This document shows, piece after piece, positions 15,283 through 62,368 of a stretch of DNA of 64,000 nucleotides. Position numbers and translations under genes: made by a program. This stretch comes from Vicinamibacterales bacterium (GTDB taxonomy: Bacteria; Acidobacteriota; Vicinamibacteria; Vicinamibacterales; UBA2999). The notes under the pieces were generated by a model, which was not told the origin of the DNA, did not search any database, and saw nothing but the letters and a program-made list of their open reading frames with translations. Positions within the stretch are counted from its first letter, which is position 1. The number at the start of each line of letters is the position of its first letter. The stretch is taken from positions 138,282 to 202,281 of the forward strand of contig DATDOE010000090.1 in the NCBI GenBank assembly GCA_035293405.1, in the 5' to 3' direction.

Positions 15283-15477
15283 GGTTCCATGTTCCAGGTT
15301 CCAGGTTCCAGGTTCGTGTTCCGAGCTCCGCTTCTGGGTTCTGAGCTCCGGGTTCACCGTTCGCGCGGGATGACCCCGGCCACGAGCCCGAACGCCCGGA
15401 ACATCGAACCCCGAACATCGAACGCCGAACTGGAACCTCGAACACGAACCCGGACCGTGGAACCGGGAACCGGGAAC
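15283..15477. repeat. Inverted pair of GGTTCC/GGAACC-type short tandem repeat arrays (long imperfect hairpin)
   Basis: Left arm GGTTCCATGTTCCAGGTTCCAGGTTCCAGGTTCGTGTTCCGAG. Right arm ...CTCGAACACGAACCCGGACCGTGGAACCGGGAACCGGGAAC. Confidence 0.8.
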
Positions 15478-16256: not shown

Positions 16257-16260
16257 ACCT

Positions 16261-16398
16261 GGTTCGTGGTTCGCGGTTCGTGGTTCGCGGTTCGTGGTTC
16301 GCGGTTCGTGGTTCGCGGTTCGTGGTTCGCGGTTCGCGGTTCTTGGTCGTGCGAAGGGTTGGGCCGTTTCGACCTCCAGATTACGAACCAAGAACCAG
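16261..16398. repeat. Heptamer array (GGTTCGT GGTTCGC) x5 ... GGTTCTT GGTCGTG with a distal complementary arm ACGAACCAAGAACC
   Basis: Read directly from the sequence. It sits between the convergent 15480 gene and ku. Confidence 0.85.
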
Positions 16399-32667: not shown

Positions 32668-32721
32668 CTGATATCTCCTGTCCCGTAAGGTGCGTACTCT
32701 CGGCAAATCGGCTCACACCCC

Positions 32722-32766
32722 GGGATTCGGGACTCGGGGCTCGGGGCTCGGGACTCGGGACTCGGA
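32722..32766. repeat. Heptamer array GGGATTC GGGACTC GGGGCTC GGGGCTC GGGACTC GGGACTC
   Basis: Same unit family as the uvrA insert. It is followed by the hairpin GGCGGGTCT-N8-AGACCCGCC (32784-32809). Confidence 0.85.
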
Positions 32767-35977: not shown

Positions 35978-36026
35978 GGTTCTTGGTTCTTGGTTCTTGG
36001 TTCTTGGTTCTTGGTTCTTGGTCGTG
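35978..36026. repeat. Heptamer array GGTTCTT x6 + GGTCGTG
   Basis: Read directly from the sequence. It has the same GGTTCTTGGTCGTG end as the array at 16336-16349. Confidence 0.9.
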
Positions 36027-41546: not shown

Positions 41547-41574
41547 GTCCGCTCCTGCGTCAGTTCTACAGGCG

Positions 41575-43068
41575 CTATCCTCGCGCTCCCGCGAAGTAGC
41601 GCAGGGCGCGCACGCCCGGAAGAAAGAAGTAGGCGCCGCCTCGCACGGCGACAAAGGACGGCAGCTCCGAGATGCGGCGTCGAAGTCCGCGCGCCGGCAT
41701 CGTAAATCCGTTCGTCACCCGACCGTCGGCAGTGTGAAGGCGATTGCCGAGCAGTGGATCGCTCTCGCCCGTCAATGCCGAGAACTTCGTGCTCGACATC
41801 CAGGCGTTCTGGATGAACTCGAACTGACGCGAGATGTTCGCGTTCAGACAGATGAAGTAGAGCCCTCGCTCGGGATCGTCGGGCGGCGCCGGGCGGAGTG
41901 CATCGTCGACGGACAAGGACGGACCGAACTCGCGGCCGCGACGAAGAATGCGATGGAAACGGACGGACGAGACCACGTCATCCTGAAACGCACTCGGCGG
42001 CAGCCCCAAATCGGCGAGGCGCCGCTTCAGCCCGGTCTCGTGATGCGCGTAGTCGCCGTTCCTGGGGTTCGCCCGGCGGATGTGCGCGCCGAATGGGCAG
42101 CGGACACCGGCCGGGTCGTCATCAAACGTGAACTGATTCAGCCGCCGTTCTTGCGCCGTGCCGGCTACACCGGGACTCCCGTCCGCCTCGATCTGCGCGA
42201 GCGGCTCCCCCGTTCGCGTCCGGCCAACAAGCTGCGACGCCAGCGCGTCGGCAGCCTGACGATCCCCACCGGCGCGGCTCGTGACGTACTGCCAGAAGTC
42301 GTGCACGTTCTGCTTCAACTGACGCATGACCAGGTAGGTGCCGTTCCTGCCGACGTCCCACTTGCCCGGCGCCTCCTCAGCGGGGGGCAGCCCGGGGCTC
42401 GAGAGGTCCACATCGATCAATGGCCGATCTGTGTACTCACCGTACTCGTTGCGATATCCGAGGAGGAGCTCGCCAAGCGCAACCTCGTTGCCATAGCCGT
42501 CTCCGCCGTCTGACGGATCGCGTCGCTGCTCCCAATCCACCGCGGGCTGGCTGATCCCGTCCATGAACCCGAACGGCTCGACTCCATCCAGCTGACTCGT
42601 GGTCAGCCGCCGCGTCTCTTCGAACCCCTCGTGCCATGCGTCCCCGAGCGTGCGGCCGACCCACTCATCGAGCTGTCCGGGCTTCGCGAACAACATCACG
42701 AGCACATGGGGCACGACGGGCGCGTAGCCCCAGTCCCATCGCTCGGGTGCATTCGACTCGACGTCCCCCAGGCGTCGCGCGCGACGAGGGTCGTCCATGC
42801 CGTCCAGGAACTCCGACGAGAAGCCGGCCCGCACGGCGGCGGATACGTCAAGCGCCTCCATGCCCTGTGCCGTGAACGCAATCTGCAGGGCCGTGACCGG
42901 CGGCGGCGAGAGCGTCGCTGCGGTTGTGACCGGCGCCGACCGCAGCCACGCTCGCGCGGCATCGACATTCCGCACACGAGCCAGCACGTACACTGCATCG
43001 GTCATTGACCCGTAGCCGAAACGGACAAGGCCCTGTACGTCGTCGAGCTCAACGCCGCCGAGGATCAC
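41575..43068 (-). CDS. DyP-type haem peroxidase (long, approximately 497 aa form)
   Basis: GxxDG motif FGFMDGISQP and proximal-His motif CPFGAHIRRANPR. GTG start at 43066-43068 overlaps the upstream stop (GTGA). In frame with ORF 41575..43788. Confidence 0.8.
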   Translation of the reverse strand: MILGGVELDDVQGLVRFGYGSMTDAVYVLARVRNVDAARAWLRSAPVTTAATLSPPPVTALQIAFTAQGMEALDVSAAVRAGFSSEFLDGMDDPRRARRLGDVESNAPERWDWGYAPVVPHVLVMLFAKPGQLDEWVGRTLGDAWHEGFEETRRLTTSQLDGVEPFGFMDGISQPAVDWEQRRDPSDGGDGYGNEVALGELLLGYRNEYGEYTDRPLIDVDLSSPGLPPAEEAPGKWDVGRNGTYLVMRQLKQNVHDFWQYVTSRAGGDRQAADALASQLVGRTRTGEPLAQIEADGSPGVAGTAQERRLNQFTFDDDPAGVRCPFGAHIRRANPRNGDYAHHETGLKRRLADLGLPPSAFQDDVVSSVRFHRILRRGREFGPSLSVDDALRPAPPDDPERGLYFICLNANISRQFEFIQNAWMSSTKFSALTGESDPLLGNRLHTADGRVTNGFTMPARGLRRRISELPSFVAVRGGAYFFLPGVRALRYFAGARG

Positions 43069-44396
43069 AGCAGCGCCACCCAATCTTTGGCGGCGCGCTC
43101 GCTCAACGACGAGGCGTCGAGTCCCTGCCGTAGTCTCGCGTTCCGCTCCAGATCGACAGCCGTCAGGCCAGGGTACGCCTTGTACCAGACCTGAGTCGGC
43201 ATCTGGTGACGGCGCAGGTAATCTTTGAACCTGCGCTCGTCGTGGCACCCATCCAGAAGCAGCCATCGGACCCTCGGGTAGCCGATGCCGTTGCCGAACA
43301 CGACGTTGAGCCCGAAGCCGACCTTGTTGATGAAGTCGTCCATATAGCTCTCGACGCTCCCGTCGTAGTTGCTCAGAAAGATCACACGCCGGCGCCCGTC
43401 GAGGAACACCCAGCGCGCGAAATGAATGCTGCGTACGCGCGCGAGGCGTCCCCGTTTGTAGATGTGCCTCGCGGCCCAGTCGATCACCCACAGCACCAGG
43501 ATCGTCGTCCACCGGCGCAGCGGCCCCGGCTTCAGAGTGCCCATCGCGCTGAACTGGTTGGTCACGTCGTGATCCTCGAGTAACGCCAGGGCCGCCACGT
43601 CCTCGCCTGGCGGGCGCGGGCACAACTCCGGATCCGTCTGCTCCAGCACTCGAAGGCGCACGACCGCCAGCACGGCCCCGGCGATGACAACGAGCAGCGC
43701 GATGCGCGGCACGAGCAGCAGCGCCAGGAGCAGGATGAGGATGACGGCCGGCAGACTGGCGAGGTGCAGCAGGTTCGCGATCCGCCATCCCATCGGCGTC
43801 GGTGCGTCCGTGGACAGCGTCAGGCGCCCGGCTCTGACGTCAACCATCACGAGGTCGCGCAGGCGTTCGTGGACTTGTCGAGGCGTGAGGCGCTCGATTT
43901 CAGGCGATCGATTCACATGCCGCTCCAACGCGTCGCGGAGCGCGGCGTCCTCACGAACCTGGCGCGCCGTTCGTCCTCGCCAGTTGACATACACCGCCGC
44001 CGCCGGCGCCTGGTGCGCGCGCATCCACTGGAGCAGGTCCGTCTCGGCGGTGAAGCCCTCACAACACGAGAAGATCGCGCGCAGCCCGGGGCCGGCGCGG
44101 GCGCTCACGTCGACAAGAAAGTCGTCGGCATCACCGTCCACGTCACCAAGAAAGCTGAGGCCTCGCGGATAGACCGGCGCTTGGATTCCGTAGACGCGGT
44201 TGTCGGCCAGCGTCCGATCGTCCACGATGAGAAACCGGGCGACGTGCACCTGCTCGAACTGCCCGAACGGGACGAGCGCGTTGTCGGGCCTGGCGTGTCC
44301 AGGCGCACCGTTCATCGACGCCAGGAGCCGGCCCAACTCCGCCTCGCGCCGGGGGTCGATCGGCGCCAGGACCATGAATGTCGACTGTGGCGTCAT
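43065..44396 (-). CDS. Membrane protein of unknown function with duplicated H[VF]AR[FW] motif halves
   Basis: The N-terminal half has QVHVARFLIVDD. A central hydrophobic stretch (LASLPAVILILLLALLLVPRIALLVVIAGAVLAV) follows. The C-terminal half has SIHFARWVFLDG...FLSNYDGS. Confidence 0.65.
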   Translation of the reverse strand: MTPQSTFMVLAPIDPRREAELGRLLASMNGAPGHARPDNALVPFGQFEQVHVARFLIVDDRTLADNRVYGIQAPVYPRGLSFLGDVDGDADDFLVDVSARAGPGLRAIFSCCEGFTAETDLLQWMRAHQAPAAAVYVNWRGRTARQVREDAALRDALERHVNRSPEIERLTPRQVHERLRDLVMVDVRAGRLTLSTDAPTPMGWRIANLLHLASLPAVILILLLALLLVPRIALLVVIAGAVLAVVRLRVLEQTDPELCPRPPGEDVAALALLEDHDVTNQFSAMGTLKPGPLRRWTTILVLWVIDWAARHIYKRGRLARVRSIHFARWVFLDGRRRVIFLSNYDGSVESYMDDFINKVGFGLNVVFGNGIGYPRVRWLLLDGCHDERRFKDYLRRHQMPTQVWYKAYPGLTAVDLERNARLRQGLDASSLSERAAKDWVALL

Positions 44397-44401
44397 CGGT
44401 G

Positions 44402-45658
44402 CTACTCGAACACCTCATCCCCTGTCGGCTCGTAGTGCGGCACCGCGTTCTTGGTGTGCCGCAGCTGTGACAGCTCCGCGTATATCCGGCGGCGCGCCCG
44501 GCTCAGGTGGCCGAGCGGACGATGCTCGGGAATGGCATGCCAGGGGTTGTACGAGAGCCGCTTGGCGAACTCCATCTGCGACGGTGAATTGAACCGCTGT
44601 CGCGGGATTCGGAGCGTCGCCACCGACACCCGTGGCGACAGCCGCTCAGGCCACAACACCGTGCTCTGCTCGATCGGCATGAGATGCGAATCGGTCTGGC
44701 GCTGGAGACGGATGTCGAACTCGACGTCCTCCCGTTCCAATGTCTTCACCATCGCGTCGCGCAGGTAATCGTCCGGCGGACGAAACGGCAGCCGCGGTAT
44801 CGGCGTGCGCCGTTTCGATGTGGGCCAGAACGAGTACTGCATCGCCTGGCCGTCCCCCAGCAGATACGGGACCTGACTGAAATACTCCACCTCGAACGGA
44901 CTGCTCTGCGTCTTCAGCCGCAGTGACTGCATGATGAAATCGAGGAGGTGCGGCTGGCGAAGGTTCAAGAAATAGTAGATCTGCGCGTTCGTCAGGCTCT
45001 CGCGCTGGAGCTGCGCGTTCGCCCTGACGTCGGGACTGACGAACGTTGGCGTCGATACGGTCAGCAGGTCCTGTGTGAACCGCTCCTCGTCCATCAGCTT
45101 TGGTCCCGGCACGCCCATCAACTTGATGCTCATGCTCAGGAAGCCCACATCGTCGATGTCGGGCGTCACGTACGGACCCGGACCGGCATATCGCACCCAG
45201 GCGCGATACGTGTGCGGACGTGCGTAGATCCCGTGGCGCAACTCCGGCGGAAGGTTGTCGTGCACCGTGAACTCGCCGCGAACGATGCCGTGTGTCTTGG
45301 TGTTGCCGCCGCGCTCGAATCCCCCAGGTTTCCAGAGCAAGCGCATCTGCTCATGGAAACTGGCAATGATCGAATCGACCCAGGCGTCTGCGTCCTGTGG
45401 CGGGCGCTCCTCCGCGAGCGCCAGGTGCTCGTTCCGCCGGCCCATGTTGATCAGGCCGGTGACCACACGCTCGCCCAGGTCGCGAAACAGCACGTCGAAC
45501 AGCGGCCGAAAGAACGGATCGAAACGACGCTCCAGTTGCAAGAGCGCGATGGAGGTATCTGAGATCCAGTCCAGCAGCGCCGAACCGGTGTTCGCACGTG
45601 GCAGCGGACGACTGACGTTCGAGTTGCTGCCGGGGCTCGGTCCAAGCTGTGTGGCCAT
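44402..45658 (-). CDS. Catalase-related haem protein (allene-oxide-synthase/mini-catalase-like family)
   Basis: Distal-His-like context GGNTKTHGIVRGEFTV. C-terminal NPWHAIPEHRPLGHLSRARRRIYAEL (Arg/Tyr proximal-ligand context). It is a paralogue of 55364..56335. Confidence 0.7.
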   Translation of the reverse strand: MATQLGPSPGSNSNVSRPLPRANTGSALLDWISDTSIALLQLERRFDPFFRPLFDVLFRDLGERVVTGLINMGRRNEHLALAEERPPQDADAWVDSIIASFHEQMRLLWKPGGFERGGNTKTHGIVRGEFTVHDNLPPELRHGIYARPHTYRAWVRYAGPGPYVTPDIDDVGFLSMSIKLMGVPGPKLMDEERFTQDLLTVSTPTFVSPDVRANAQLQRESLTNAQIYYFLNLRQPHLLDFIMQSLRLKTQSSPFEVEYFSQVPYLLGDGQAMQYSFWPTSKRRTPIPRLPFRPPDDYLRDAMVKTLEREDVEFDIRLQRQTDSHLMPIEQSTVLWPERLSPRVSVATLRIPRQRFNSPSQMEFAKRLSYNPWHAIPEHRPLGHLSRARRRIYAELSQLRHTKNAVPHYEPTGDEVFE

Positions 45659-45680
45659 CGCGAAATCCCCAGCAGCAGCG

Positions 45681-48167
45681 TCAGAAGGTCTTCAGGAATT
45701 CAATCAGGGCGCGTTTCTCCGGGTCCGCCAGCTCGGTGCCGAACAAGTGCCCGCGGTTCACGATGAAGTCCGGACACTTGCTCATTTCGAGCAGCGGGTC
45801 TACGAGATCCCGGAATGCGGCCGTGGCATCGGCGTCGGTGGCGTTCGCTCCGAGCTTGTGCAGCCGCGCAAGAATCCTGACCATGAGGGCCGCGACCCTC
45901 GCATCGTGCTCGACCTGCCGGGACGGATCGTCGGCGATCAACCGCAGGTTGGAGAGCAGTCCGATCGGCGTCCCTCTCGGAATCGGCCCGATCCGCAAAC
46001 CGTCCTCTGAGAAGAGCGACGGGAACAGCGCCTGCTGCGTCCTGAGCGTCCGCTTGAGGGCCTCAGGGAGATACCCTGCGCTGAACTTCAGGTACACCGG
46101 CTGCGTGCCATGCCCTTCCGGCGCGCGGTCGCCCACGCGATCGATGAGGCCGGGAATCTTGTCGCCGAGCAACGAGTCCTTCTCGCGATCCTGCGGCCAG
46201 AGCAGCTTGTGGATCGAGTCGTCGAACGATCGCATGCGCCCCTCGACCGACGGGCTCATCTCGAGCCGGCCCACCGTGTTGTTCAGGAGGAACGGCGCCG
46301 TGGACCAGAGGCTGACGAGCGACGGCGGCCGCGTGTAGCCACGTCCTCCGGCCGGCATCTCGAAGGAGCGCGCTTCGCCAGTGTATGGGTGATACCAGAG
46401 CATCTTGCCGACCGACGGCAGCTCCTTGTACGACTGCGACGAGAAGTTGTCCCAGATATTGCCGCTCATGGCGTTGGTGGCGAGCGGACTGCAGGCATTG
46501 GTCTGCAGCAGCGTCACTGGTACGCGGACCTCGGCAGAGAGGTAGTTGTCGTTGAGGAAGTCCGGTGCGGTCACGATGTCGCGCATCTGCTTCTTGAACT
46601 CCGGTGTCTGCGTCGCAGCCCAGTACCGGTTCCAGCAATCGAGATATCCCTTGCCGTTGCAGCCCTCCGGGTCGAGGCCAGCCGCCATCTCCGGCAGCTT
46701 GGTCGAATGGCATCGCGCGCAGGTGTCGGCAAACACCTCTTTGCCGCGCGTCAGCACGGTCGCGTCCTTAGTCAGATACGCGGCGCCGCCAGGGGCATCC
46801 GCGAGATGGTGAGCGTCTGTCGTCTTGAGGAAGAACTTCGCCGTGTCGAGGGTCTGCGCCTCGGTCGCCTTGAAGTACGCGGAGTTGCGCCGCGCCGCTT
46901 CGATCCTGAGTGGCGTCTGCGGCCTGGCTCCGATGAGCGGCAGGAAGTGCTGCGTCCACTCCTCGCTGAAGGTCCCGATGTTGAGATACACGCGGTTGAG
47001 CGCACCGAGCGCACCCACCGAGTCGGCGCCGTCCTTGAGCACGCGCGGGGCCCAAACCGCCGGTGACGCGAAGAGCGTGGCGAGCGGGCCGTCCTTGATG
47101 AAGTCGCTGAACTGACGATTGTCGAGCCCACCGCCAGCGAGTGTCTCCTTGCCCCAGCGCTTGGCGTGCAGCAGGCGCGGCCCGATCAAATACAACGCGT
47201 TCATCGTCCGCGGGTTGTTGATGTTGTCGCTCGCAACGAATGAGGTGTCGAGCGAGCCCGGCCGCGACGAATGAAAAATCTGGAACGCAAAGTCCTCGAA
47301 GTCGGCAGCCTGATAGAAGATGCGATCGATCGTGAAGTACTGGGCGCCGACGTTGGAGCTCAGGTTGGCCCACGCCGGGTTATTGGGATCGGCGGGTGGC
47401 TTGATCGGATTGGGACCGACATGGCAGAACCCGCACGACATACCCACGCGGTAGGGTCGGACGAGCGCCTTGTCCTCGTAGTACGTCCGGTCGGTGTAAT
47501 AGCGTTCCGCGTCCCAGCGTTTGGCCGCCTGTTCGTCGAAGTTCGGGTTCGGAAAGAGGCGCAGGCCAACGATGCCCGTGGCATAGCCGTAGAACGATCC
47601 GGTCTCGAAGGGGTTGCCGTTCAGCGTCTGGCCCCGCGCGCCTGTCTGAACGCCGGGGTACTTCGTCGCGTTCTCGAATGGATCCGGTGGACAGTCCGCC
47701 TGGCGCTGATCGACCCACAGACCCCTACGCGCCGGATTGGCTCCCGTCGGCTTGGTGAAGCACGGCTCGTTGACGAGGCCGAAGTAGTCCCACCGGTTGG
47801 CCCGGCTGTAGCTCTGGGACGGGTGGGACGAGACGACTTTGAGAAAGTCGAGCGCCCCGCCACTGGTCTCGCTCAGCGTATCCCACAGCCGATCGTTCCC
47901 GGCGCTCCACACCAGCCACGTATTGCGGCCGCGAATCTCGTCGAGCGAGAGCGTAACGGGACCGCCGCGGTCCTGATCCATGTCGCGGAAGTAATCCTCA
48001 TCGGCCGCAGGGAACGACGCGGCTTCGCGCGCGGGCGACGCGACGAGCGCTTCGTCTTGCTGCTCGGGAGGCGTCGGCGGGTGGGTCCGGAACCAGGCGA
48101 ACACGAGGCCGGCAGTGACGACGACGACGGCCACGCCGGCCAGCAGGCCGGTGCGAGTAGATTGCAT
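45681..48167 (-). CDS. Large exported di-haem c-type cytochrome (peroxidase/oxygenase-like), unknown function
   Basis: Signal anchor MQSTRTGLLAGVAVVVVTAGLVFAWF. It has two CxxCH motifs (MSCGFCHVGPNP and DTCARCHSTK) about 230 aa apart. Confidence 0.7.
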   Translation of the reverse strand: MQSTRTGLLAGVAVVVVTAGLVFAWFRTHPPTPPEQQDEALVASPAREAASFPAADEDYFRDMDQDRGGPVTLSLDEIRGRNTWLVWSAGNDRLWDTLSETSGGALDFLKVVSSHPSQSYSRANRWDYFGLVNEPCFTKPTGANPARRGLWVDQRQADCPPDPFENATKYPGVQTGARGQTLNGNPFETGSFYGYATGIVGLRLFPNPNFDEQAAKRWDAERYYTDRTYYEDKALVRPYRVGMSCGFCHVGPNPIKPPADPNNPAWANLSSNVGAQYFTIDRIFYQAADFEDFAFQIFHSSRPGSLDTSFVASDNINNPRTMNALYLIGPRLLHAKRWGKETLAGGGLDNRQFSDFIKDGPLATLFASPAVWAPRVLKDGADSVGALGALNRVYLNIGTFSEEWTQHFLPLIGARPQTPLRIEAARRNSAYFKATEAQTLDTAKFFLKTTDAHHLADAPGGAAYLTKDATVLTRGKEVFADTCARCHSTKLPEMAAGLDPEGCNGKGYLDCWNRYWAATQTPEFKKQMRDIVTAPDFLNDNYLSAEVRVPVTLLQTNACSPLATNAMSGNIWDNFSSQSYKELPSVGKMLWYHPYTGEARSFEMPAGGRGYTRPPSLVSLWSTAPFLLNNTVGRLEMSPSVEGRMRSFDDSIHKLLWPQDREKDSLLGDKIPGLIDRVGDRAPEGHGTQPVYLKFSAGYLPEALKRTLRTQQALFPSLFSEDGLRIGPIPRGTPIGLLSNLRLIADDPSRQVEHDARVAALMVRILARLHKLGANATDADATAAFRDLVDPLLEMSKCPDFIVNRGHLFGTELADPEKRALIEFLKTF

Positions 48168-48181
48168 CACGACGCGTCGCC

Positions 48182-48616
48182 TCACTCGAATTCGAGGGTG
48201 AAGTGCAGACTCGGCTTGTTGTGGGCGTACACCAGGCCGAGATACAGCTTGGGAGCGATGAGCCGGATCTCGTCGCGAATCCAACTCGCCACGAGGGACG
48301 TCTTCGAGTAGTCGAGGACGATGCACTCGTTGCCATCAAACTGACTGGGGCCCTTGTAGACCTCCGCCACGATGGCGTTCAGGCCAAAGGCGGTAATGCG
48401 GTTGCGCAGGACGCCGTGCGCACCGTCAAACGTTTTGCCCTGCCAGACAAACCGGCTGACGGCTTCAGCGATCGCCGGTGAAAACCTGGTGCCGGCGGCA
48501 ACAATAGCCGTCCCCTTCGCCGCGCCGTCGGGAAGAGGTCCGGCGACCGCGGACCGAAACATGTCATTGAGCTGCGTGTCGTCGAGTGTGAGCAATGTCG
48601 GGACGTCGATCACCAT
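48182..48616 (-). CDS. Small conserved protein (144 aa), unknown function; first gene of the operon
   Basis: Start MVIDVPTLL with a GAGG RBS. The motif FDGNECIVLDYSKTSLVASWIRDEIRLIAPKLYLGLVY is one I recall from a conserved hypothetical family. Confidence 0.6.
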   Translation of the reverse strand: MVIDVPTLLTLDDTQLNDMFRSAVAGPLPDGAAKGTAIVAAGTRFSPAIAEAVSRFVWQGKTFDGAHGVLRNRITAFGLNAIVAEVYKGPSQFDGNECIVLDYSKTSLVASWIRDEIRLIAPKLYLGLVYAHNKPSLHFTLEFE

Positions 48617-52466: not shown

Positions 52467-52494
52467 GGTTCGTGGTTCTTGGTTCTTGGTTCCT
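52467..52494. repeat. Heptamer array GGTTCGT GGTTCTT GGTTCTT GGTTCCT
   Basis: Read directly from the sequence, immediately after the dienelactone hydrolase stop codon. Confidence 0.8.
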
Positions 52495-52520
52495 GGGCAG
52501 TTTGCGGATCCTTCTAGTAA

Positions 52521-55363: not shown

Positions 55364-56335
55364 TTACCCGACCTGGCGCGACTGGCGGAACCGGGACATG
55401 GCCTCGTAGATCTCGCGACGCGCCCGGTTCATGTTCCCGAGCGGACGATGCTCCGCGAGGCAGTGCCAGGGATTGAAGGCCATGCGCTCGCAGGCGCGGT
55501 CGCGGCCCGGCACGTCGATATCCTGTCGCGGGATGCGCAGACGGGCGACGCGCACGTACGGCGACTCGCGCTCTTTCCACTCCACGCTCGCATCCTCGAT
55601 CGGCATCCTCGTGGCATCGATCTGAAACTGGACGAAGAAGTCGAAGCTCGCCTCGTCGGTGGACAGACGCTGGCGGAGCGCGTCGTGGAGGTAGGTATCG
55701 GTCACGTTCGGCTTCCGTGCGTGCACGCGAGGGGTGGGCCGGACGATGTACTTGACGGCCCGGCCGGTCCCGAACTGATAGGGCGTCGTGCTCCAGTACG
55801 GAATGTCCAGGTGACTCGAGGGATGCTCCCGCGAGGCAAACGCGATGCGCGCGGCCTTCGGATGCGACAGGAAGTACCGGGCCTTCCCCATCGTTCCCCC
55901 TTCGACCGCCCGCAGCAGCTCCAGGAACTCCCGGGTTCCAGGGACCATCATCACGGGATGGCTGTTGAGGATGAAGTCCTGCGAGGTTTCTCCGGGTGTG
56001 AGATTCTCGCCCGGCACGCGGAGCAGCTTGATCGACATCCCGCGGACGTCTTTCGCGCGGTCTGAGGCCGACGCTGCACTGGCGAACCGAATCCAGGCTG
56101 GATAGCTCCTCGGCTCGCTGAACGCGCCGATCCTGAGGTTGCTGTCGAGGCCGTTGACGACCAGGAGCTCGCCTTCCACACAGCCCGAGTGCCTCGCCTG
56201 ATTGAACCGGCGCAGGGGGCCCGTGGGATATCGGCTGGTGCTGGCCGACTGCAGGAAGGCGATAAACTCGGCGGTGACGGCGCGCTCGTCCGGCGCGATG
56301 GTCTCGCCCGCGAGGTCTTGTCTCGGCCTGGCCAT
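55364..56335 (-). CDS. Catalase-related haem protein (small, approximately 323 aa)
   Basis: ARHSGCVEGELLV distal context. FNPWHCLAEHRPLGNMNRARREIYEAMSRFR proximal Arg/Tyr context. It is a paralogue of 44402..45658. Confidence 0.75.
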   Translation of the reverse strand: MARPRQDLAGETIAPDERAVTAEFIAFLQSASTSRYPTGPLRRFNQARHSGCVEGELLVVNGLDSNLRIGAFSEPRSYPAWIRFASAASASDRAKDVRGMSIKLLRVPGENLTPGETSQDFILNSHPVMMVPGTREFLELLRAVEGGTMGKARYFLSHPKAARIAFASREHPSSHLDIPYWSTTPYQFGTGRAVKYIVRPTPRVHARKPNVTDTYLHDALRQRLSTDEASFDFFVQFQIDATRMPIEDASVEWKERESPYVRVARLRIPRQDIDVPGRDRACERMAFNPWHCLAEHRPLGNMNRARREIYEAMSRFRQSRQVG

Positions 56336-56377
56336 CGTTCAGCGTCCTCTCTGGCGCTTCGCGCGCATCATATACCG

Positions 56378-56569
56378 ATGGACCCTCTCTTCCTGGTGAC
56401 GTGCCCCTACTGCGGCGAAGAAATCGAGATCTACCTGGAGCCCGAGATTCGAGGCTCGCTCGTCCAGGACTGCGAGGTGTGCTGCAACCCCTGGAATCTC
56501 AGCGTGTCGGCGGCTGACGAGGACGGCGAGCGGTACGTGGACGTCACGCGCGGCGACGGATCGGAATGA
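56378..56569 (+). CDS. CPXCG-motif zinc-ribbon small protein
   Basis: MDPLFLVTCPYCGEEIEIYLE...DCEVCCNPW. In frame with ORF 56189..56569. Confidence 0.7.
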   Translation: MDPLFLVTCPYCGEEIEIYLEPEIRGSLVQDCEVCCNPWNLSVSAADEDGERYVDVTRGDGSE

Positions 56570-56633
56570 GGAGTGCCGGTTCGTCGTCTGGCCAGCGTTG
56601 GTTTTTCGTCACCTCGTGGCCAGCCCGTTGAGC

Positions 56634-56665
56634 GCGGGAAGCCTGCGAGTACGCAGGCTTCCCGC
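56634..56665. other. Perfect 14-bp stem / 4-nt loop hairpin
   Basis: GCGGGAAGCCTGCG-AGTA-CGCAGGCTTCCCGC. No U-tract follows on either strand. Confidence 0.5.
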
Positions 56666-57008
56666 GAAAAATCATCGGCGGAGTGAGCCGCGGTCCGCTG
56701 CGAGGTCGTCGCAACGGTGGCACGCCGATTGGATGCATCACTGACGGCACATCATGAACGTCCGAGTTGAGACCCTCGACCGCCTCGATCCGCTGGTCGG
56801 CTCTTCCAGTCGGCTCTTTCCCGCCCTTCGCACCATAACCGCAGCCGCGACCGTGATGTTCACGTCGCTGTGGCATCGCCAATCGTCGATGGTGATGAGC
56901 GAAGAGTGGATGAAAGAGCACCGCTGGACGTCCCGCATCCACTAGATCTCTGGGCCCGGCCAGACCCGGTTTCCGAGTAAGACTGGCCACGCCGTGACTC
57001 CCGGGTAA

Positions 57009-57053
57009 GATCGTTCGGATCGTTCGGGTCGTTCGGATCGTTCCGGTCGTTCA
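57009..57053. repeat. Nonamer array (GATCGTTCG-type x5) at the 3' end of the TMEM175-like gene
   Basis: GATCGTTCG GATCGTTCG GGTCGTTCG GATCGTTCC GGTCGTTCA. It is inverted relative to 57603..57665. Confidence 0.9.
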
Positions 57054-57668
57054 AGACGTCGAGATGCGGCGCTCGATGCGGCGATCGGGGATCAGCCACC
57101 AGAGGGCCACGGCAATGTAGAGGCCAACCCCCAGCCAACGGTTGACGAAGGACAGTGCGATCGCGACGGCGTAGATCGCGACCGACATCTTGCCCTTGAC
57201 GTCCCGCCCGACCGCCTCGTGCAGGGTCGAGTCGGATCCGTGGTGGCGGATCAGCGCGCGCACGAGGATGAAGTACGCAATGCCGGACATCATCATCACG
57301 AACCCGTAGAGCGCCACCGGCCACCGGTCGAAGTGATTCTCGCCCATCCATGCGGTCACCAACGGCACGAGCGAGAGCCAGAACAAGAGGTGCAAGTTGC
57401 TCCACAGGATGGCGCCGTTGACTTGCTTCACGGCGTGCAGCATGTGGTGGTGATTGTTCCAGTAGATGCCGACGTGCACGAAGCTCAGGACGTAGCTGCC
57501 GAAGACGGGCATCAGCGGGCGCAACGCCTCGAAGTCCGTGCCGTGAGGGGCCCGCATCTCGAGCACCATGATGGTGATGATGATGGCGATGACCCCGTCG
57601 CTGAACGCTTCGAACGACCCGAACGTTTCGAACGATCCGAACGACCCGAACGACCCGAACGATCTCAG
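57051..57668 (-). CDS. TMEM175/DUF1211-family potassium channel-like protein (start codon unresolved)
   Basis: The track ORF starts at MVLEM (57569). The hallmark FEAFSDGVIAIIITIMVLE continues upstream in frame with no ATG/GTG/TTG before the in-frame stop at 57834. A CTG at 57666-57668 overlaps the upstream gene stop (CTGA). Confidence 0.6.
   Translation of the reverse strand: MRSFGSFGSFGSFETFGSFEAFSDGVIAIIITIMVLEMRAPHGTDFEALRPLMPVFGSYVLSFVHVGIYWNNHHHMLHAVKQVNGAILWSNLHLLFWLSLVPLVTAWMGENHFDRWPVALYGFVMMMSGIAYFILVRALIRHHGSDSTLHEAVGRDVKGKMSVAIYAVAIALSFVNRWLGVGLYIAVALWWLIPDRRIERRISTS
57603..57665. repeat. Nonamer array (GAACGACCC-type x7) forming the 5' end of the TMEM175-like gene
   Basis: GAACGCTTC GAACGACCC GAACGTTTC GAACGATCC GAACGACCC GAACGACCC GAACGATCT. 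It encodes (SFG)n on the minus strand. Confidence 0.9.
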
Positions 57669-60448
57669 GACTCCAAATACTCCGATAGCGTCATCCGAAC
57701 GAAGCCCGCAGGCGGCTCGTCGCCGATGGCCATGCGCGCCGACTCGTGGACGATCACATCCTGGAACGTGACCGGCTTCGCCCGCGCCCAGTCCAGCTCG
57801 AAGGTTTCCGCGTAGTACTGCGAGATCTCGACGTCATCGAAGATCAGGCTCGCGTCGCGGTTCAGGGTCACACCCGACGAGCTCCAGTTGTGGCTGCCGA
57901 TCAGCACGCGGCGGCCGTCAACGACGATGCCCTTGGTGTGCGTGTTCGGCAACAGCCGCACGGTCTGGTGGACATCCATCCCGAGCCGCTTCAGCTGCGA
58001 CAAATGGAAGTCCTTGCCGTCGAGCGGCGAGCGCAGAATGATGCGACAGTCCGCGATCGTCTTCGACCGGTCGACAAGAGCGGCCACCAGCTTCTTGAGG
58101 AAGCCCGCCTCCGCTCCTTTCATGTTGATGTACTGGTTCTGAAACAGGAGCTGGGTGGTCGCCGAGCGAATCAGCTGCAGCACGGCGTTGCTGTACACAG
58201 CACCCTGCTTGTCTGGCGTCAGCAACGGCTTGACGCGTACCTTCCGCGTGATCGTCTTCGGCAGCATCACGTGCGCGGGCGGCCCTTCGGCCACCACCGC
58301 CTCCAGGACGGTCACGGGCACGTCGACGAGCGGTGGATTCTCCACCGCCTCCGGCGTCCCGCCAAGCGTCATCGCCTGCTCGAAGTCCGCCTCGATGTGG
58401 TTGCGGAACCGATCGGCCAGCGTCTTGTTGGCGATCACCACATGCCACTCACGGTTCCCGGCCTTGGAGGTCTTCGAAGGATTGTCGAGGTCGGCCGGCG
58501 CGATGAGTGGCTGACTCGTCTTGGTCCAGTTTCCGCTCGACAGCCAGACCACCGCATCCTTTCCTTCATCGCGAACCGTGACCTTGATGTGGTACGCGTT
58601 GGCGACCAGCCCGTTGGCGCCGTAGGGCACGAAGATGCGATCGAAGTGGTCGCCGAAATCGGATTCCCACTGATCGAAGGTCAGGCTGCGATCGAACTCC
58701 CCCGCCGGTATCGTGCCGCTCGAGGGGTCCTTGCTCTGCGGTGCGAGCACCATCTTCAGTGACGCCTGACCCTCGAGCTCGGCCTGCATCGCTTTCGCGA
58801 TGTGCGCCGCCTGGAACTCGTACATCGAGGTCACCAGCCGCTTCTTCGTTCCGGCCAGGAAGTCGGCGAGAACGGTCCAGCTGCGCTCGGGCCCGATGTG
58901 GAGGTTCAGCTCCATCATCTCGTTGACCCAGTTGAAGCTGAATCCATGCCCGGTCCGATCCTCATCGTTGTACGAAATCGACGTCGTCGCTTCAGTCGTC
59001 AACTCGGGCGCGCTCACCATCAGCTGCTCTTCCAGTGATGCCGGCCGGACATCGACAGGAAGGCCGCGGAACTCGCGCGGCATGCGCACCTGCACCTCCG
59101 CGAAGCGATCCGGGTGCGCGGAGACGACAATGCACTCGTCGTCGCTCAACTGCTCGTCACGAATGAGATAGCCCGCCCAGGCATCGAGCACGCCGTTGCC
59201 TCGCTGCTCCTGCCGCAACGCGTCAGCCGCCGCTTCCGCATCGGAACGCGGCGCATCCGTCTCGGCTCCTCCGGTCTGCTGCGGCTGGCCAAGCGACACG
59301 TGGACGAGGAGAGGGATCGTGATGGAGATGGTGCCGTCGTCAGTCGTTAGCGACGCGTGGGCGACCGTCGTTTTCTTGTCTTCCGGCGCTTCTGGAGGCG
59401 CGGGGCGTGGACGCGGAACGGGCGACGGCGTCCCCCCGTGCCACGGCCGGGTCTTCAGATACTGCCGCATCATCGAGGCAGGGACCGCGTAGTTCTCGAC
59501 CATGTAGAGACCCGCGAAGTGCAGCGCGACCGCGCGTCCCGTCTTCATGTCCAGCACCACCGACCCGGAGTTGCCGCCGAGCGTCGTGCAGTCGTGCGTG
59601 GCCCAGCCGCGGCTCGCTTTGCCGACGAGGCCGGGTGCGATGCGTTTGATGTCGTAGGTGCCGTTGTAGATCCGATCCATCCACGCCTGATCGGGAATGA
59701 TGTGGGCCGGCGCTCGTGCCGGGTAGCCGACGACCGCAACGTGCGTGTTCTCGGCAACGTCCGCGTCAGCCAGCGGAATGAACGGCGGCCGGCCCTCCAC
59801 GACGCTTCCGCTGCCGATCTGCAGAAACGCGATGTCGGCTTTCCTGGCCTCCGATTCAATCCACAGCACGCGGCGGACGGGCACTGACGCCGCCTCGGTC
59901 ACGCCGAGCTCATGGCGTGAGTCGAGCGACACGACCATGTCATCGCCAAACCGTCCCGGACGGAAACGATAATGCGCGCCGTCCCGCTGCGCGATGAGAT
60001 CCGCCACATGCCGGTTCGTGACGACGATGTCGCGATCGACGAGCCAGCCGGTGCCCACGTAGGTCGCGTTGCCCGGGAAGTTGGCGACATCGATGCGACC
60101 GACAAGAGGGATGACCGACCCGAGAAGGCCCGCCGCGCCCTTCAATCGCGCGACGATCTGCTTGGCCGACGCTTCGATCAGCGCATCCTGGTAGACGATC
60201 TGACGGTCCTTGATGAGAAACGCCGGACGGCCTTCGCGAACGATGGTCTCGAAGGCGATGTCGTCGGCCTCGATGCCGCGCAGGCCCGAGGCCGCGGCTT
60301 CGAGCCTGAACGCATTGCCCGGAGACGAGACCAGATTGTCGAACCGCGCCGACAGCTCGCGGTGCAGATCCGGGTCGTTGTGCTCCAGCGCCTGCAACCA
60401 GTTGCGGTAGAGGCTCCGGTCGCTCCCGGACGTCATGTGTGGCGACAT
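57665..60448 (-). CDS. Fusion protein: trypsin-like (S1) serine protease + linker/middle domain + two-HKD phospholipase D-family domain
   Basis: Protease triad contexts are VVTNRHV, DIAFLQI and GGNSGSVV. A Pro-rich linker and a middle region follow. HKD motifs are HIKVTVRD...SSGNW and HTKGIVVDGRRVLIGSHNWS. There is no signal peptide. Confidence 0.8.
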   Translation of the reverse strand: MSPHMTSGSDRSLYRNWLQALEHNDPDLHRELSARFDNLVSSPGNAFRLEAAASGLRGIEADDIAFETIVREGRPAFLIKDRQIVYQDALIEASAKQIVARLKGAAGLLGSVIPLVGRIDVANFPGNATYVGTGWLVDRDIVVTNRHVADLIAQRDGAHYRFRPGRFGDDMVVSLDSRHELGVTEAASVPVRRVLWIESEARKADIAFLQIGSGSVVEGRPPFIPLADADVAENTHVAVVGYPARAPAHIIPDQAWMDRIYNGTYDIKRIAPGLVGKASRGWATHDCTTLGGNSGSVVLDMKTGRAVALHFAGLYMVENYAVPASMMRQYLKTRPWHGGTPSPVPRPRPAPPEAPEDKKTTVAHASLTTDDGTISITIPLLVHVSLGQPQQTGGAETDAPRSDAEAAADALRQEQRGNGVLDAWAGYLIRDEQLSDDECIVVSAHPDRFAEVQVRMPREFRGLPVDVRPASLEEQLMVSAPELTTEATTSISYNDEDRTGHGFSFNWVNEMMELNLHIGPERSWTVLADFLAGTKKRLVTSMYEFQAAHIAKAMQAELEGQASLKMVLAPQSKDPSSGTIPAGEFDRSLTFDQWESDFGDHFDRIFVPYGANGLVANAYHIKVTVRDEGKDAVVWLSSGNWTKTSQPLIAPADLDNPSKTSKAGNREWHVVIANKTLADRFRNHIEADFEQAMTLGGTPEAVENPPLVDVPVTVLEAVVAEGPPAHVMLPKTITRKVRVKPLLTPDKQGAVYSNAVLQLIRSATTQLLFQNQYINMKGAEAGFLKKLVAALVDRSKTIADCRIILRSPLDGKDFHLSQLKRLGMDVHQTVRLLPNTHTKGIVVDGRRVLIGSHNWSSSGVTLNRDASLIFDDVEISQYYAETFELDWARAKPVTFQDVIVHESARMAIGDEPPAGFVRMTLSEYLES

Positions 60449-60784
60449 CCTGCACTCCTTCAGTGAACCGAGCCTGCTCAGGATCTTCGCGCGAGAAGGT
60501 CCCCCTCCGCCGAAGGCTTCGGCGGGACAGGCCTACGCAAACCATTAACGCTGGGGCCAGACCATTCGAACACAGACTTGCCTGCCGCTTCACGGCAGGA
60601 AGCGATTCTTCACGATCACTCTCAACTCGAAATCACTACCGGTTTTGATCAGAACTCTTTATCAGAGTGGAACACGGCTTTCTCAAAGTGGAACACGCCC
60701 AGGAGCTGCCCCCCGGATTTGCGCCGAGAGTGAACAGTCTTCGATGGCAATCCGCTTGCTCCGTCGGTCGGGTCCAGGTGTCGT

Positions 60785-62368
60785 GTGTCTTATCTAACTA
60801 TTGAAGACCTCATCGTCCGTCACGCGTCCGGCCGCGGCACCCAGCCAGTGGTCGACGGGTTGACGTTCGCCGTCGAGGCCGGCGAAATCGTGGGCGTATC
60901 GGGGCCTTCGGGATCCGGCAAGACGACGGTGGCTCGCGCGCTGCTCGGGCTGCTGCCGGCGAGCGCGGACGTATCGGGCGTGATCCGCTTTCGCGGCCGC
61001 GATCTGCGCGGCCTGAAAGAGCGCGAGCTGGAGACCATCCGCGGCGCCGAGATCGGCATCGTGTTCCAGGAGTCGGCGCTCGCTCTGAACCCCGTCTTGA
61101 CGGTCGGCGCACAGATTGCGGAAGTCGTTCACGCACACACCCGCTGCGATCGAGTCACCGCGCGTGAGCGCGCGCTGGCCACGATGGCCGATGTGGGGTT
61201 CGGCGACTACAACCGCCGCATCTACGACGCCTACCCGCACGAGCTGAGTGGCGGACAGCGTCAGCGTGTGCTCATCGCGCAAGCGATTGTGTGTCAGCCA
61301 ACACTGGTGGTCGCAGACGAGCCCACTGCGTCCCTCGATGCCAGTGCGCGCGCCGAGGTGCTGCGCCTCATTCGCCGGATCAATGAGCGTCAGGGCACGG
61401 CGTTTCTGTTGATCAGCCACAGCGCCGAGGTCCTCGCCACGACGGCCCATCGCGTCATCACCATGGACCATGGACGGTTGACCACCAGCGCTCGCGCGTT
61501 GCGTGAGCCGGCCGGCCCACGCTTCGACATCGTCCCGGCATTCAGCCGACCCGCGAACGCGCCGAATGCGTCGCCGATCGCGGAGATGGCCAGCGGCACC
61601 AAGACACACCGGCAACAGCGCCTGCTGTCACGAGCGCGTCACGACGTCGCGGCGCTGGCCGGTGTCGATCTGCGGATCGAACGCGGCAGCACCCTGGGGC
61701 TGGCCGGAGAGTCCGGGTGTGGGAAGTCCACCCTCGCCCGATGTCTCGCCGGCCTCGAGCCGCTCGATGCTGGCGAGGTTCGTATCGACGGCGTGGATAT
61801 CTCCTCGCTTCGGGGACGCGCGCTGCTCCCCTATCGCAATCAAGTGCAGCTGATCTTCCAGGACTCGGCGGCGGCGCTGAACCCCCGGTTCACCGCGCTC
61901 GACATCATCACCGAGCCGATGGTCGTGCAACGGGTTGCCAATCCCACCGAGCGCGTCCTGCGCGCGGTCGATCTCATGCTGCAGGTGGGCCTGCCGGCCG
62001 ATCGTCTGCAGTCGCGGTCGGGCGAGTTCAGCGGCGGTGAGCGGCAGCGGCTCGCGATTGCGCGCGCGCTGGCGATGAAGCCGCGGCTGCTCATCCTCGA
62101 CGAAGCGTTCTCGGGGCTCGACGTCGAGACCCGCACGCGCATCACAAGCCTGCTGATCAACCTTCAGGAGACGCACGACCTCACGTATCTCTGCATCTCG
62201 CACGACCTCGAGCTGCTCGGCGAGTTCGCGTCCGAGGTGGCGGTGATGCAGGGCGGCCGGATCGTCGAACGCGGCGAGACCGGCGAAGTGATCGACGAGC
62301 CCAGGCACGCACACACGCGCGCGCTCCTGAGCGCGATGCGCAGCCAGTCAGAAGGCGCCGCGGCATGA
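60785..62368 (+). CDS. ABC transporter ATP-binding protein with two fused ATPase domains (Dpp/Opp/Nik type)
   Basis: It has two Walker A motifs (GPSGSGKTT, GESGCGKST) and two signature motifs (LSGGQRQR, FSGGERQR). Confidence 0.9.
   Translation: MSYLTIEDLIVRHASGRGTQPVVDGLTFAVEAGEIVGVSGPSGSGKTTVARALLGLLPASADVSGVIRFRGRDLRGLKERELETIRGAEIGIVFQESALALNPVLTVGAQIAEVVHAHTRCDRVTARERALATMADVGFGDYNRRIYDAYPHELSGGQRQRVLIAQAIVCQPTLVVADEPTASLDASARAEVLRLIRRINERQGTAFLLISHSAEVLATTAHRVITMDHGRLTTSARALREPAGPRFDIVPAFSRPANAPNASPIAEMASGTKTHRQQRLLSRARHDVAALAGVDLRIERGSTLGLAGESGCGKSTLARCLAGLEPLDAGEVRIDGVDISSLRGRALLPYRNQVQLIFQDSAAALNPRFTALDIITEPMVVQRVANPTERVLRAVDLMLQVGLPADRLQSRSGEFSGGERQRLAIARALAMKPRLLILDEAFSGLDVETRTRITSLLINLQETHDLTYLCISHDLELLGEFASEVAVMQGGRIVERGETGEVIDEPRHAHTRALLSAMRSQSEGAAA

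Follow-up and report, generated by a model that had tools for sequence, protein, structure and literature searches.

Related systems and the locus analysed

The gasdermin operon of Lysobacter enzymogenes codes for a gasdermin, two trypsin-like proteases and a STAND ATPase, and in related operons the gasdermin is swapped for an endonuclease or a phospholipase effector (Wein et al. 2023, PMC10312443). Such systems carry the DefenseFinder name 'CARD-NLR' (cited in PMC13236601). Here we describe a gene from a stretch of 64,000 nucleotides (nt) of a Vicinamibacterales bacterium (contig DATDOE010000090.1; this whole 64-kb stretch is called the window), which codes for a fusion of a trypsin-like protease with a phospholipase D (PLD) domain that carries two HKD motifs. 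The fusion belongs to an already described kind of system, as an orphaned member. We consider it reasonably likely that it is a protease-gated pro-enzyme which acts as an abortive-infection effector of the CARD-NLR type, that its three partner genes have been lost, and that it has no tie to the adjacent TMEM175-family gene.

In the LypABC system of Caulobacter crescentus, a flexible linker in LypC joins a trypsin-like peptidase (amino acids (aa) 1-335) to an endonuclease (H471, N505), and LypA combines a CARD, a trypsin domain and a degenerate ATPase-like domain (PMC13236601). Under the name 'System 3', trypsin-like peptidases coupled to the nuclease NucA (Endonuclease_NS) have been described, for which a proteolytic cascade that deploys the nuclease was proposed (Kaur, Burroughs, Iyer and Aravind 2020, PMC7159879). 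In the view of these authors, the 'essential core' consists of the trypsin-like peptidases and the nuclease, with the STAND NTPase an add-on; HKD/PLD versions are not mentioned in that paper. Protease-activated 'gated' pro-nucleases have been reported from Hachiman, AVAST and 'canu' loci (Tuck et al. 2025, PMC12799240).

Anatomy of the fusion protein

The gene and its parts are as follows.

57665..60448, minus strand: trypsin-like protease/two-HKD PLD fusion, complete coding sequence (CDS) of 927 aa with ATG start (list of open reading frames (ORFs), Pfam, homologues)
60455..60459, minus strand: Shine-Dalgarno sequence AGGAG, 6 nt 5' of the fusion ATG (direct sequence reading)
60107..60448, minus strand: N-terminal helical extension, aa 1-114 (AlphaFold2; no Foldseek match to any fold)
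59435..60106, minus strand: trypsin-like protease domain, aa 115-338, triad H147/D205/S294 (Pfam, alignment A1)
59246..59434, minus strand: Pro-rich linker, aa 339-401 (predicted local distance difference test (pLDDT) 31-35; sequence)
59282..59329, minus strand: conserved linker motif ISITIPLLVHVSLGQP, aa 374-389 (regular expression, alignment)
58952..59245, minus strand: small alpha/beta domain, aa 402-499 (AlphaFold2, pLDDT 80-90 over aa 404-485)
57668..58951, minus strand: two-HKD PLD catalytic domain, aa 500-927 (Pfam, Foldseek, PDB matches)
58568-58591, minus strand: HKD1
57917-57940, minus strand: HKD2
57665-57667, minus strand: fusion stop codon TGA

A sequence-only reading of this DNA had described a 927-aa polypeptide without signal peptide that combines a complete S1 protease triad with two HKD motifs, and these residues are found where they had been placed. 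Both domains score above their Pfam thresholds, which are 27.6 bits for Trypsin_2 and 27 bits for PLDc_2: the former reaches 56.3 bits (aa 132-309, E 8e-15) and the latter, matched in two stretches, 78 bits (E 5.7e-22). The protease motifs are TNRHV (144-148), ADIAF with the catalytic D205, and GGNSGS (291-296), while a second DIAF at aa 63-66 is non-catalytic. HKD1 reads HIKVTVRD (620-627) followed by SSGNW (H620/K622/D627, S638-G-N640), and HKD2 reads HTKGIVVD (837-844) followed by GSHNWS (H837/K839/D844, G851-S-H-N854). The residues H147, D205 and S294, those of both HKD motifs, and also M1, are invariant in alignment A1, which comprises 20 sequences from Acidobacteriota, Planctomycetota, Alphaproteobacteria and Betaproteobacteria. 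Across 52 loci, the protease triad is intact except on one truncated contig. Judged by its His-Asp-Ser order and a score above the gathering threshold, the N-terminal enzyme is a predicted PA-clan (S1-type) serine protease; the two HxKxxxxD motifs, each with its G/S-S/G-x-N, likewise mark the C-terminal enzyme as a predicted two-HKD member of the PLD superfamily. With more than 1,200 homologues, the fusion is not a chance ORF.

No signal-like N-terminus and no hydrophobic segment were found in the fusion (maximal Kyte-Doolittle value 1.59 over 19-residue windows). Given this hydrophilic N-terminus and values that stay below transmembrane level throughout, the protein can reasonably be placed in the cytosol. 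The AlphaFold2 model of the whole fusion (mean pLDDT 74.6) has five parts. The extension is built from helices 7-24, 26-41, 46-53 and 61-72, a hairpin (78-85) and a further helix (93-109), and the protease region (117-323) is beta-rich. The Pro-rich linker that had been noted from the sequence is borne out as a disordered segment (aa 338-401). The small alpha/beta domain which follows has no Pfam, NCBIfam or PADLOC match.

For the C-terminal half, the top Foldseek matches are PLD1/2, the PLD3/4 nucleases and vaccinia F13 (E ~1e-13). The best relatives of known structure by sequence are Zucchini/MitoPLD (1.9e-8), Nuc and NucT. The domain also matches DrmC and Mko in PADLOC and NucT/DrmC in NCBIfam, and for aa 755-890 the nuclease-type families score best among the named families. 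DISARM DrmC, Mokosh MkoB/C, Nuc, NucT, Zucchini/MitoPLD and PLD3/4 resemble the fusion in their HxKxxxxD motifs and PLD fold. However, each is either a dimer with a single HKD or part of an unrelated system, and none is joined to a protease. The DrmC and Mokosh matches are partial, cover the HKD region only and lie far below the family cutoffs (DrmC_I 26.9 bits against 133), so that this likeness is one of superfamily level only; no DISARM or Mokosh partner genes occur near the fusion.

Homologues and their operons

Among 5.8 billion proteins searched, the fusion has more than 1,200 homologues. The best 120 are full-length at 49-59% identity, and most of them are annotated as 'phospholipase D-like domain-containing protein'. 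Overall, full-length homologues lie at about 50-65% identity, with the nearest relative at 59-65%. Their distribution is patchy across phyla and includes Acidobacteriota, Planctomycetota, Alpha- and Betaproteobacteria and rhizobial plasmids. For an analysis of gene context, 74 homologue loci were taken from species-representative genomes, with extra contigs for single proteins.

In the closest relatives the fusion is the first gene of an operon. It is followed by genes for two Trypsin_2 proteins, the first of ~380 aa and the second of ~660 aa, and for a STAND/NACHT-like NTPase of ~1,100 aa. This four-gene operon is carried by P0002 (59% identity), P0003, P0022, P0013, P0092 and P0098, with a spacing of 0-20 nt after the fusion. 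The ~380-aa and ~660-aa partners match the PADLOC models PDLC03010 and PDLC03017 ('trypsin-like'), the ~380-aa partner matching PDLC03010. The ~660-aa partner has an N-terminal region of ~130 aa, then Trypsin_2, then a degenerate P-loop of the GPxGSG type. The last protein of the operon (1,080-1,660 aa) has weak AAA_16, NPHP3_N and NACHT signatures and is in some cases extended by TPR-S and a trypsin domain; the Pfam matches of the partner proteins are thus AAA_16, NPHP3_N, NACHT and TPR-S. The earlier proposal of a conflict-system effector is borne out by these operons and by the PADLOC defence models that their proteins match.

With family hidden Markov models (HMMs) built from the partners, we classified 52 non-redundant loci which have an intact fusion. 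The full operon is present in 17 of the 52, a TPR-S/trypsin partner only in 7, and 5 are cut by contig ends. The remaining 23 of the 52 (~40%) are solo. All 11 catalytic and motif residues are kept in 19 of the 23 solo copies, the exceptions being changes of D627 or truncation at a contig end. Whole clades of the neighbour-joining tree (computed without bootstrap) are solo, namely L009/L012, L016/L043 and L019/L024/L030/L072. The window protein, in contrast, is placed inside an operon-borne clade (L080, L084, L015, L002, L008, L081). As it is nested among operon-borne sequences, its solo state is derived. Split or frameshifted copies of the fusion occur at L018, L036, L041, L049, L051 and L052.

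The wider surroundings of the homologues are rich in defence and mobile genes. One setting is an integrative element that carries relaxase, ParE and HsdM, and some homologues are near integrases. Neighbours include SEFIR-NACHT, PIN toxin-antitoxin, TIR and Roc-COR-TIR genes; on conjugative rhizobial plasmids the homologues are found beside caspase, CHAT, S8 and TIR genes. Some of the solo copies sit in defence islands. An all-against-all clustering of ORFs from 75 loci yielded no conserved neighbours beyond the protease and NTPase families, and the sole cluster common to the window flanks and the homologue loci is a generic ABC ATPase at scattered positions.

Two loci contain further proteins of interest. 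On the Bradyrhizobium barranii plasmid pBb1S5b (L091 6361-11727), a protein of 1,788 aa has two trypsin domains before the PLD domain and adjoins genes for a caspase-family protein and an M12 peptidase. At L084 (7240-9927), an 895-aa patatin-like protein is encoded directly upstream of a complete four-gene operon and is possibly a second effector.

A portable N-terminal module with a conserved linker motif

The sequence-only reading had compared the N-terminal region to the leader of trypsin-like effectors linked to NTPases. This comparison holds, since aa 65-331 align to the PADLOC model PDLC03010 (labelled 'nacht', E 1.4e-16) and the closest homologues reside in protease/STAND NTPase operons. 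Because PDLC03010 matches both, the N-terminal half of the fusion is a paralogue of the ~380-aa partner protease. Pfam EAD and Trypco domains were not found at the N-terminus.

A tblastn search of plasmids revealed that aa 11-389 of the fusion are 36% identical, in an alignment of 393 aa (E 1e-49), to a Trypsin_2/Endonuclease_NS protein encoded on an Agrobacterium Ti plasmid. The similarity spans the extension, the protease and the linker, while the C-terminal domain of that protein is Endonuclease_NS. As the match covers all three N-terminal parts and the C-terminus is a different one, we regard the N-terminal module as a portable chassis with interchangeable phosphodiesterase heads. By sequence, the fusion would thus be of the LypC/'System 3' type, which is characterised by the shared extension, trypsin domain and linker and by a swappable C-terminal hydrolase. 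The swap to NucA, together with the nuclease-type affinities of the PLD domain, makes nucleic acid a more likely target of the PLD domain than lipid.

The linker itself is variable apart from the motif at aa 374-389. In a strict regular expression search (G.[VI]S[IV]T[IV]P[LV]T[IV].[IV]SLG.P), this motif was found in 36 of the 52 fusion homologues, among them 15 of the 23 solo copies. It is common to the PLD fusions and the Agrobacterium pTi trypsin/Endonuclease_NS protein (L092 8989-11091). We infer that, as a docking or cleavage element, it is the strongest candidate.

Comparison with known systems

The relatives of the fusion share with CARD-NLR systems the operon order (effector, trypsin-like protease, longer trypsin-like protease, STAND/NLR-like ATPase) and partner proteins that match PADLOC defence models. 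They differ in the effector, which is a trypsin/two-HKD PLD fusion and not a gasdermin or, by the description in the paper, the phospholipase-endonuclease tested from Pedobacter. The window locus differs further in that it holds the effector only. Neither an NLR-like STAND ATPase in the operon nor a trypsin-like protease with CARD-like domain alongside is encoded in the window. The fusion itself would fill the position of the cell-killing effector gene, its orthologues being the first gene of the operon. Since only the effector is present, the window locus falls short of a CARD-NLR system as defined at the level of the locus.

LypC, which is a member of a CARD-NLR-like triad, has the same layout as the fusion: a flexible linker ties an N-terminal trypsin-like part of ~335 aa to a C-terminal domain of phosphodiesterase type, and a signal peptide is absent. 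However, its C-terminus is an endonuclease and not a PLD domain, and LypA and LypB are encoded alongside. The link between LypC and the fusion runs through the 36%-identical Agrobacterium trypsin/Endonuclease_NS protein and otherwise through the published description. LypA, with its CARD, trypsin domain and degenerate ATPase-like domain, resembles the ~660-aa partner of the relatives.

The likeness to 'System 3' consists in a trypsin-like peptidase fused to or beside a nuclease, operons with several trypsin paralogues, an optional STAND NTPase which carries a Death-like domain, and an N-terminal module homologous to that of the fusion. The effector of 'System 3' is NucA/HNH and not PLD, and these systems are mostly alphaproteobacterial. 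In the Hachiman, AVAST and 'canu' loci, too, a sensor-controlled trypsin-like protease switches on a latent nuclease through site-specific cleavage. There, however, the nuclease is a separate protein of the MBL fold and the protease is part of the sensor protein, whereas the fusion is one chain with a PLD fold. This is a likeness of logic, for which Hachiman and AVAST provide a precedent from experiment, and does not imply homology.

The TMEM175 neighbour

Downstream of the fusion gene lies an ORF of the TMEM175 family, which is bracketed by two inverted repeat arms.

57051..57569, minus strand: TMEM175-family ORF from an internal ATG, 172 aa (Pfam E 2.2e-19, from model position 17)
57614..57665, no strand: right inverted-repeat arm, 9-nt tandem array (GTTCGGRTC units) that abuts the fusion stop (Tandem Repeats Finder)
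57008..57059, no strand: left inverted-repeat arm, 9-nt units reversed, overlapping the TMEM175 stop codon

The sequence-only reading had proposed a module of protease, PLD and ion channel. It had also pointed out that the only in-frame start candidate for the channel gene is a CTG overlapping the fusion stop. The second observation is correct: the frame is open up to this CTG (57666-57668), which overlaps the fusion TGA and is the sole near-cognate start, and no ATG, GTG or TTG occurs in frame before the FSD motif. It may be used as a start. The module itself did not survive. Homologues of the TMEM175 protein, one of them ~90% identical, are encoded by ordinary 190-aa genes with the start MGKGRLEAFSDG. 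In the window, this start and the first five codons have been overwritten by the 9-nt tandem array, which is in frame with TMEM175 and reads SFGSFGSFGSFETFGSF. A functional channel of this family has six transmembrane segments, the RxxxFSD motif and a start codon; the window ORF retains the FSD but lacks a canonical start. None of the other 70-odd fusion-homologue loci adjoins a TMEM175 gene.

The two arms are 52 nt long and 85% complementary, and the GTTCGGRTC motif was not found elsewhere in the 64-kb window. A 1.5-kb contig of a close relative (L090) codes for the ~90% identical TMEM175 protein with its ATG kept. Here too, 9-nt arrays flank the gene, one of them upstream of the intact start, and the TMEM175 orientation is opposite relative to the flank shared with the window. 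Downstream of TMEM175 (L090 1247-1501) there is a remnant of the fusion CDS of only 35 nt, identical in 33 of 35 positions to window 58080-58114. Just 4 nt past it begins a stretch of 217 nt that is homologous (91% identity) to window 60565-60781, which lies upstream of an ABC transporter operon. Thus, ~2.9 kb of the fusion gene are gone in this relative, and a 116-nt stretch upstream of the fusion has also been deleted.

Because the relative has an inverted TMEM175 and a deleted fusion, the adjacency of the two genes is the product of a local rearrangement. Since the gene has been deleted there, the fusion is dispensable in this lineage and its presence varies among close relatives. The arms suggest an inversion mediated by the inverted repeats, or possibly an invertible TMEM175 segment. 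As the array in the relative sits by an intact TMEM175 start, it belongs to the TMEM175 flanks; the idea that it is a scar of the operon deletion was rejected on the same ground. An assembly artefact at the junction was also rejected, as an independent Joint Genome Institute (JGI) assembly is 100% identical across it; one Logan contig ends 27 nt past the fusion stop codon. We conclude from these sequence comparisons that TMEM175 is apparently not part of the system of the fusion and has no functional connection to it.

Between the fusion and the ABC transporter operon, which are divergent, the intergenic region contains two copies of a 21-nt direct repeat, CTTTATCAAAGTGGAACACGG (window 60657-60697). 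It is conserved in the relative, which has no fusion, and is therefore probably an operator of the ABC operon. Scans of 56300-60900 for sigma-70 promoters and intrinsic terminators gave no sites, but such scans are uninformative for this phylum.

Proposed mechanism and weighing of the alternatives

In the ancestral four-gene operon, the NTPase would sense infection and activate the partner trypsin-like protease. The protease cascade would end in cleavage of the effector and release its PLD activity, likelier against nucleic acid. The killing enzyme would be the two-HKD PLD hydrolase, which is tethered by the disordered linker to its own trypsin-like domain. Cleavage may occur at or near the linker motif at aa 374-389 or in the conserved C-terminal tail, and either the protease domain of the fusion or a partner protease may be the cutter. 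The solo copy in the window could be triggered in trans by partners encoded elsewhere in the genome, could act autonomously, or could be a relic. We lean towards an orphaned but functional gene, because frame, Shine-Dalgarno sequence and catalytic residues are intact and solo copies are conserved across many lineages. The window gene is an isolated accessory gene, intact but dispensable, and is probably still functional. An accessory gene that moves horizontally also fits the observation that the UvrC of the window (85% identity to a Vicinamibacterales metagenome-assembled genome) has database relatives at 94%, while the nearest relative of the fusion is at 59-65%. The sequence-only reading had left the function open. 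It can now be narrowed to an orphaned effector of the CARD-NLR type.

If this assignment is correct, a generically annotated family of more than 1,200 members takes the effector slot of CARD-NLR-type immune systems. A portable chassis of N-terminal extension, trypsin domain and linker then carries either a PLD or a NucA-type nuclease, and the conserved linker motif becomes an activation site that can be tested. That solo copies are frequent and keep their catalytic centres raises the question whether effectors can work without their sensor. The apparent three-activity module in the window is a by-product of gene loss and local rearrangement.

Several points weigh against assigning the fusion to a CARD-NLR-type system as its gated effector. 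The likeness to CARD-NLR systems is drawn from architecture, from PADLOC and Pfam matches and from published descriptions of the Lysobacter, Pedobacter, Azospirillum TSO35-2 and Caulobacter systems. No homologue of a partner protease or of the NTPase was detected in the window by tblastn and family HMMs, nor any partner gene within 10 kb of the fusion on the 227-kb contig, in agreement with the earlier remark that no sensor NTPase is adjacent. Because the partners are absent from the window and the 10-kb flanks, the sensing and activating steps are without identified players in this genome. The surroundings are of housekeeping type and not a defence island (UvrA, UvrC, an aconitase-family protein, a Na+/H+ exchanger, CobS/CobT-like proteins). 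Compared as full-length profile, as N-terminal profile or by hhalign, the ~660-aa partner of the relatives matches in sequence neither 8SRZ nor 8SS1, the CARD-like domains of known structure; its homologue in Azospirillum agricola has a weak CARD-like match only (E 0.47). In the fusion, a CARD- or Death-like fold of the N-terminal 118 aa is not supported by AlphaFold2 (pLDDT 62, which is low confidence) and Foldseek (no PDB match below E 6). A homotypic adaptor pairing of the fusion's N-terminus with that of the ~660-aa partner was rejected, as hhalign gave a probability of 1.3%. By fold and sequence, the PLD domain may be a nuclease or a lipase. Finally, the protease serine of LypC, the only protein with this architecture of trypsin-like peptidase plus nuclease to have been characterised, is essential for gene transfer agent (GTA)-linked lysis while its nuclease residues are dispensable (Banks et al. 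2026, PMC13236601), so that the hydrolase domain is not always the executioner.

An alternative which we regard as unlikely is that the fusion is an autonomous one-gene module: the solo protein would sense the trigger itself, through its N-terminal extension or its protease domain, cut its own linker and free the PLD domain, and the NTPase would not be needed. The 23 solo loci among 52, with all 11 catalytic and motif residues kept in 19 of them, the entire solo clades, the solo copies in defence islands and the linker motif in 15 of the 23 solo copies are all in line with this, as are the add-on status given to the STAND NTPase by Kaur et al. (PMC7159879), the Shine-Dalgarno sequence of the window gene's own and the 116-nt upstream stretch that was deleted together with the gene in the relative. 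Yet the clade of the window protein is operon-borne, so that the loss of the partners is recent on that scale, and Pfam and Foldseek recognise no sensor-like domain in the N-terminal extension. Moreover, the gene was simply lost in the close relative, and in the literature on related systems we found no experimental precedent for a solo version. Extended to the solo trypsin-PLD genes as a whole (~40% of the family), the idea of a self-sufficient module, in which the extension serves as sensor or autoinhibitor, the linker motif is self-cut in cis or between copies and the PLD nuclease kills the cell, seems rather doubtful; if true, the operons with NLR-like NTPases would be elaborations of a simpler core. 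It is quite improbable that the window gene is a non-functional relic, left over after deletion of the partners and en route to loss. The absence of the partner genes, the 35-nt fragment that is all the sister lineage keeps, the split or frameshifted copies at six other loci and the damage to the adjacent TMEM175 by repeat expansion, which suggests an unstable region, would suit a relic. However, the frame of 927 codons is unbroken, with Shine-Dalgarno sequence, ATG and all catalytic residues intact, the neighbour-joining tree shows no visible lengthening of the branch relative to the operon-borne sister, and the sequence is identical in three independent assemblies.

Two more readings were considered. 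A two-gene toxin or abortive-infection unit, in which translation of the TMEM175 channel is coupled to that of the protease-PLD fusion, is very improbable. The genes are on the same strand, the CTG overlaps the fusion TGA and the junction is reproduced in the JGI assembly, but the channel gene is a neighbour of no other fusion homologue, its native start MGKGRLEAFSDG and first five codons are overwritten with no ATG, GTG or TTG left, and in the relative the segment is inverted relative to the common flank while the fusion is absent. A housekeeping phospholipid enzyme (a PLD similar to cardiolipin or phosphatidylserine synthase, with attached protease) is hardly credible. This reading could draw on the annotation of some homologues as 'phosphatidylserine/phosphatidylglycerophosphate/cardiolipin synthase-like' and on a weak NCBIfam match of the fusion to CDP-diacylglycerol--serine O-phosphatidyltransferase (E 0.056). 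Against this, the fusion has no transmembrane segments, its best sequence matches are PLDs of nuclease type (Zucchini/MitoPLD, Nuc, NucT, DrmC), and the homologues are distributed patchily across phyla with proteases, NTPases and defence or mobile genes as neighbours. Lipid-synthesis genes were never seen beside homologues at the loci examined; the context of cardiolipin or other housekeeping lipid synthesis, which the sequence-only reading had named as speaking against a conflict system, thus does not occur in these neighbourhoods.

Other genes and repeats in and near the window

The ABC transporter operon that is divergent from the fusion is of the oligopeptide type. Beyond it, 2.7-6.3 kb past the right end of the window (L075 853-4325), a 961-aa CHAT-TPR protein is encoded beside an ECF-type sigma factor. 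This is a protease-based gene of conflict type with no evident link to the fusion.

Two genes beyond TMEM175 are not conserved beside fusion homologues.

55364-56335, minus strand: 323-aa protein without Pfam match
56381-56569, plus strand: 62-aa CPXCG zinc-ribbon protein

Further away, a run of large ORFs on the same strand (38685-48326, minus strand) starts with a 989-aa patatin-like protein (38685-41654), which is followed by ORFs of 737, 443, 418 and 881 aa without Pfam matches. This run may be a separate conflict or lipase-based locus.

The window also contains many tandem arrays with 7-nt units (16260-16351, 31007-31105, 32721-32765, 35978-36022, 52467-52496 and 15387-15477). Their units are TGGTTCG (13 copies), CGGGACT (7 copies, two places), GGTTCTT (6 copies, two places) and CCCGAAC-like sequences, and at least one array, that at 31007-31105, lies inside the long UvrA-like ORF. 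The 7-nt arrays look like a genome-wide, microsatellite-like feature.

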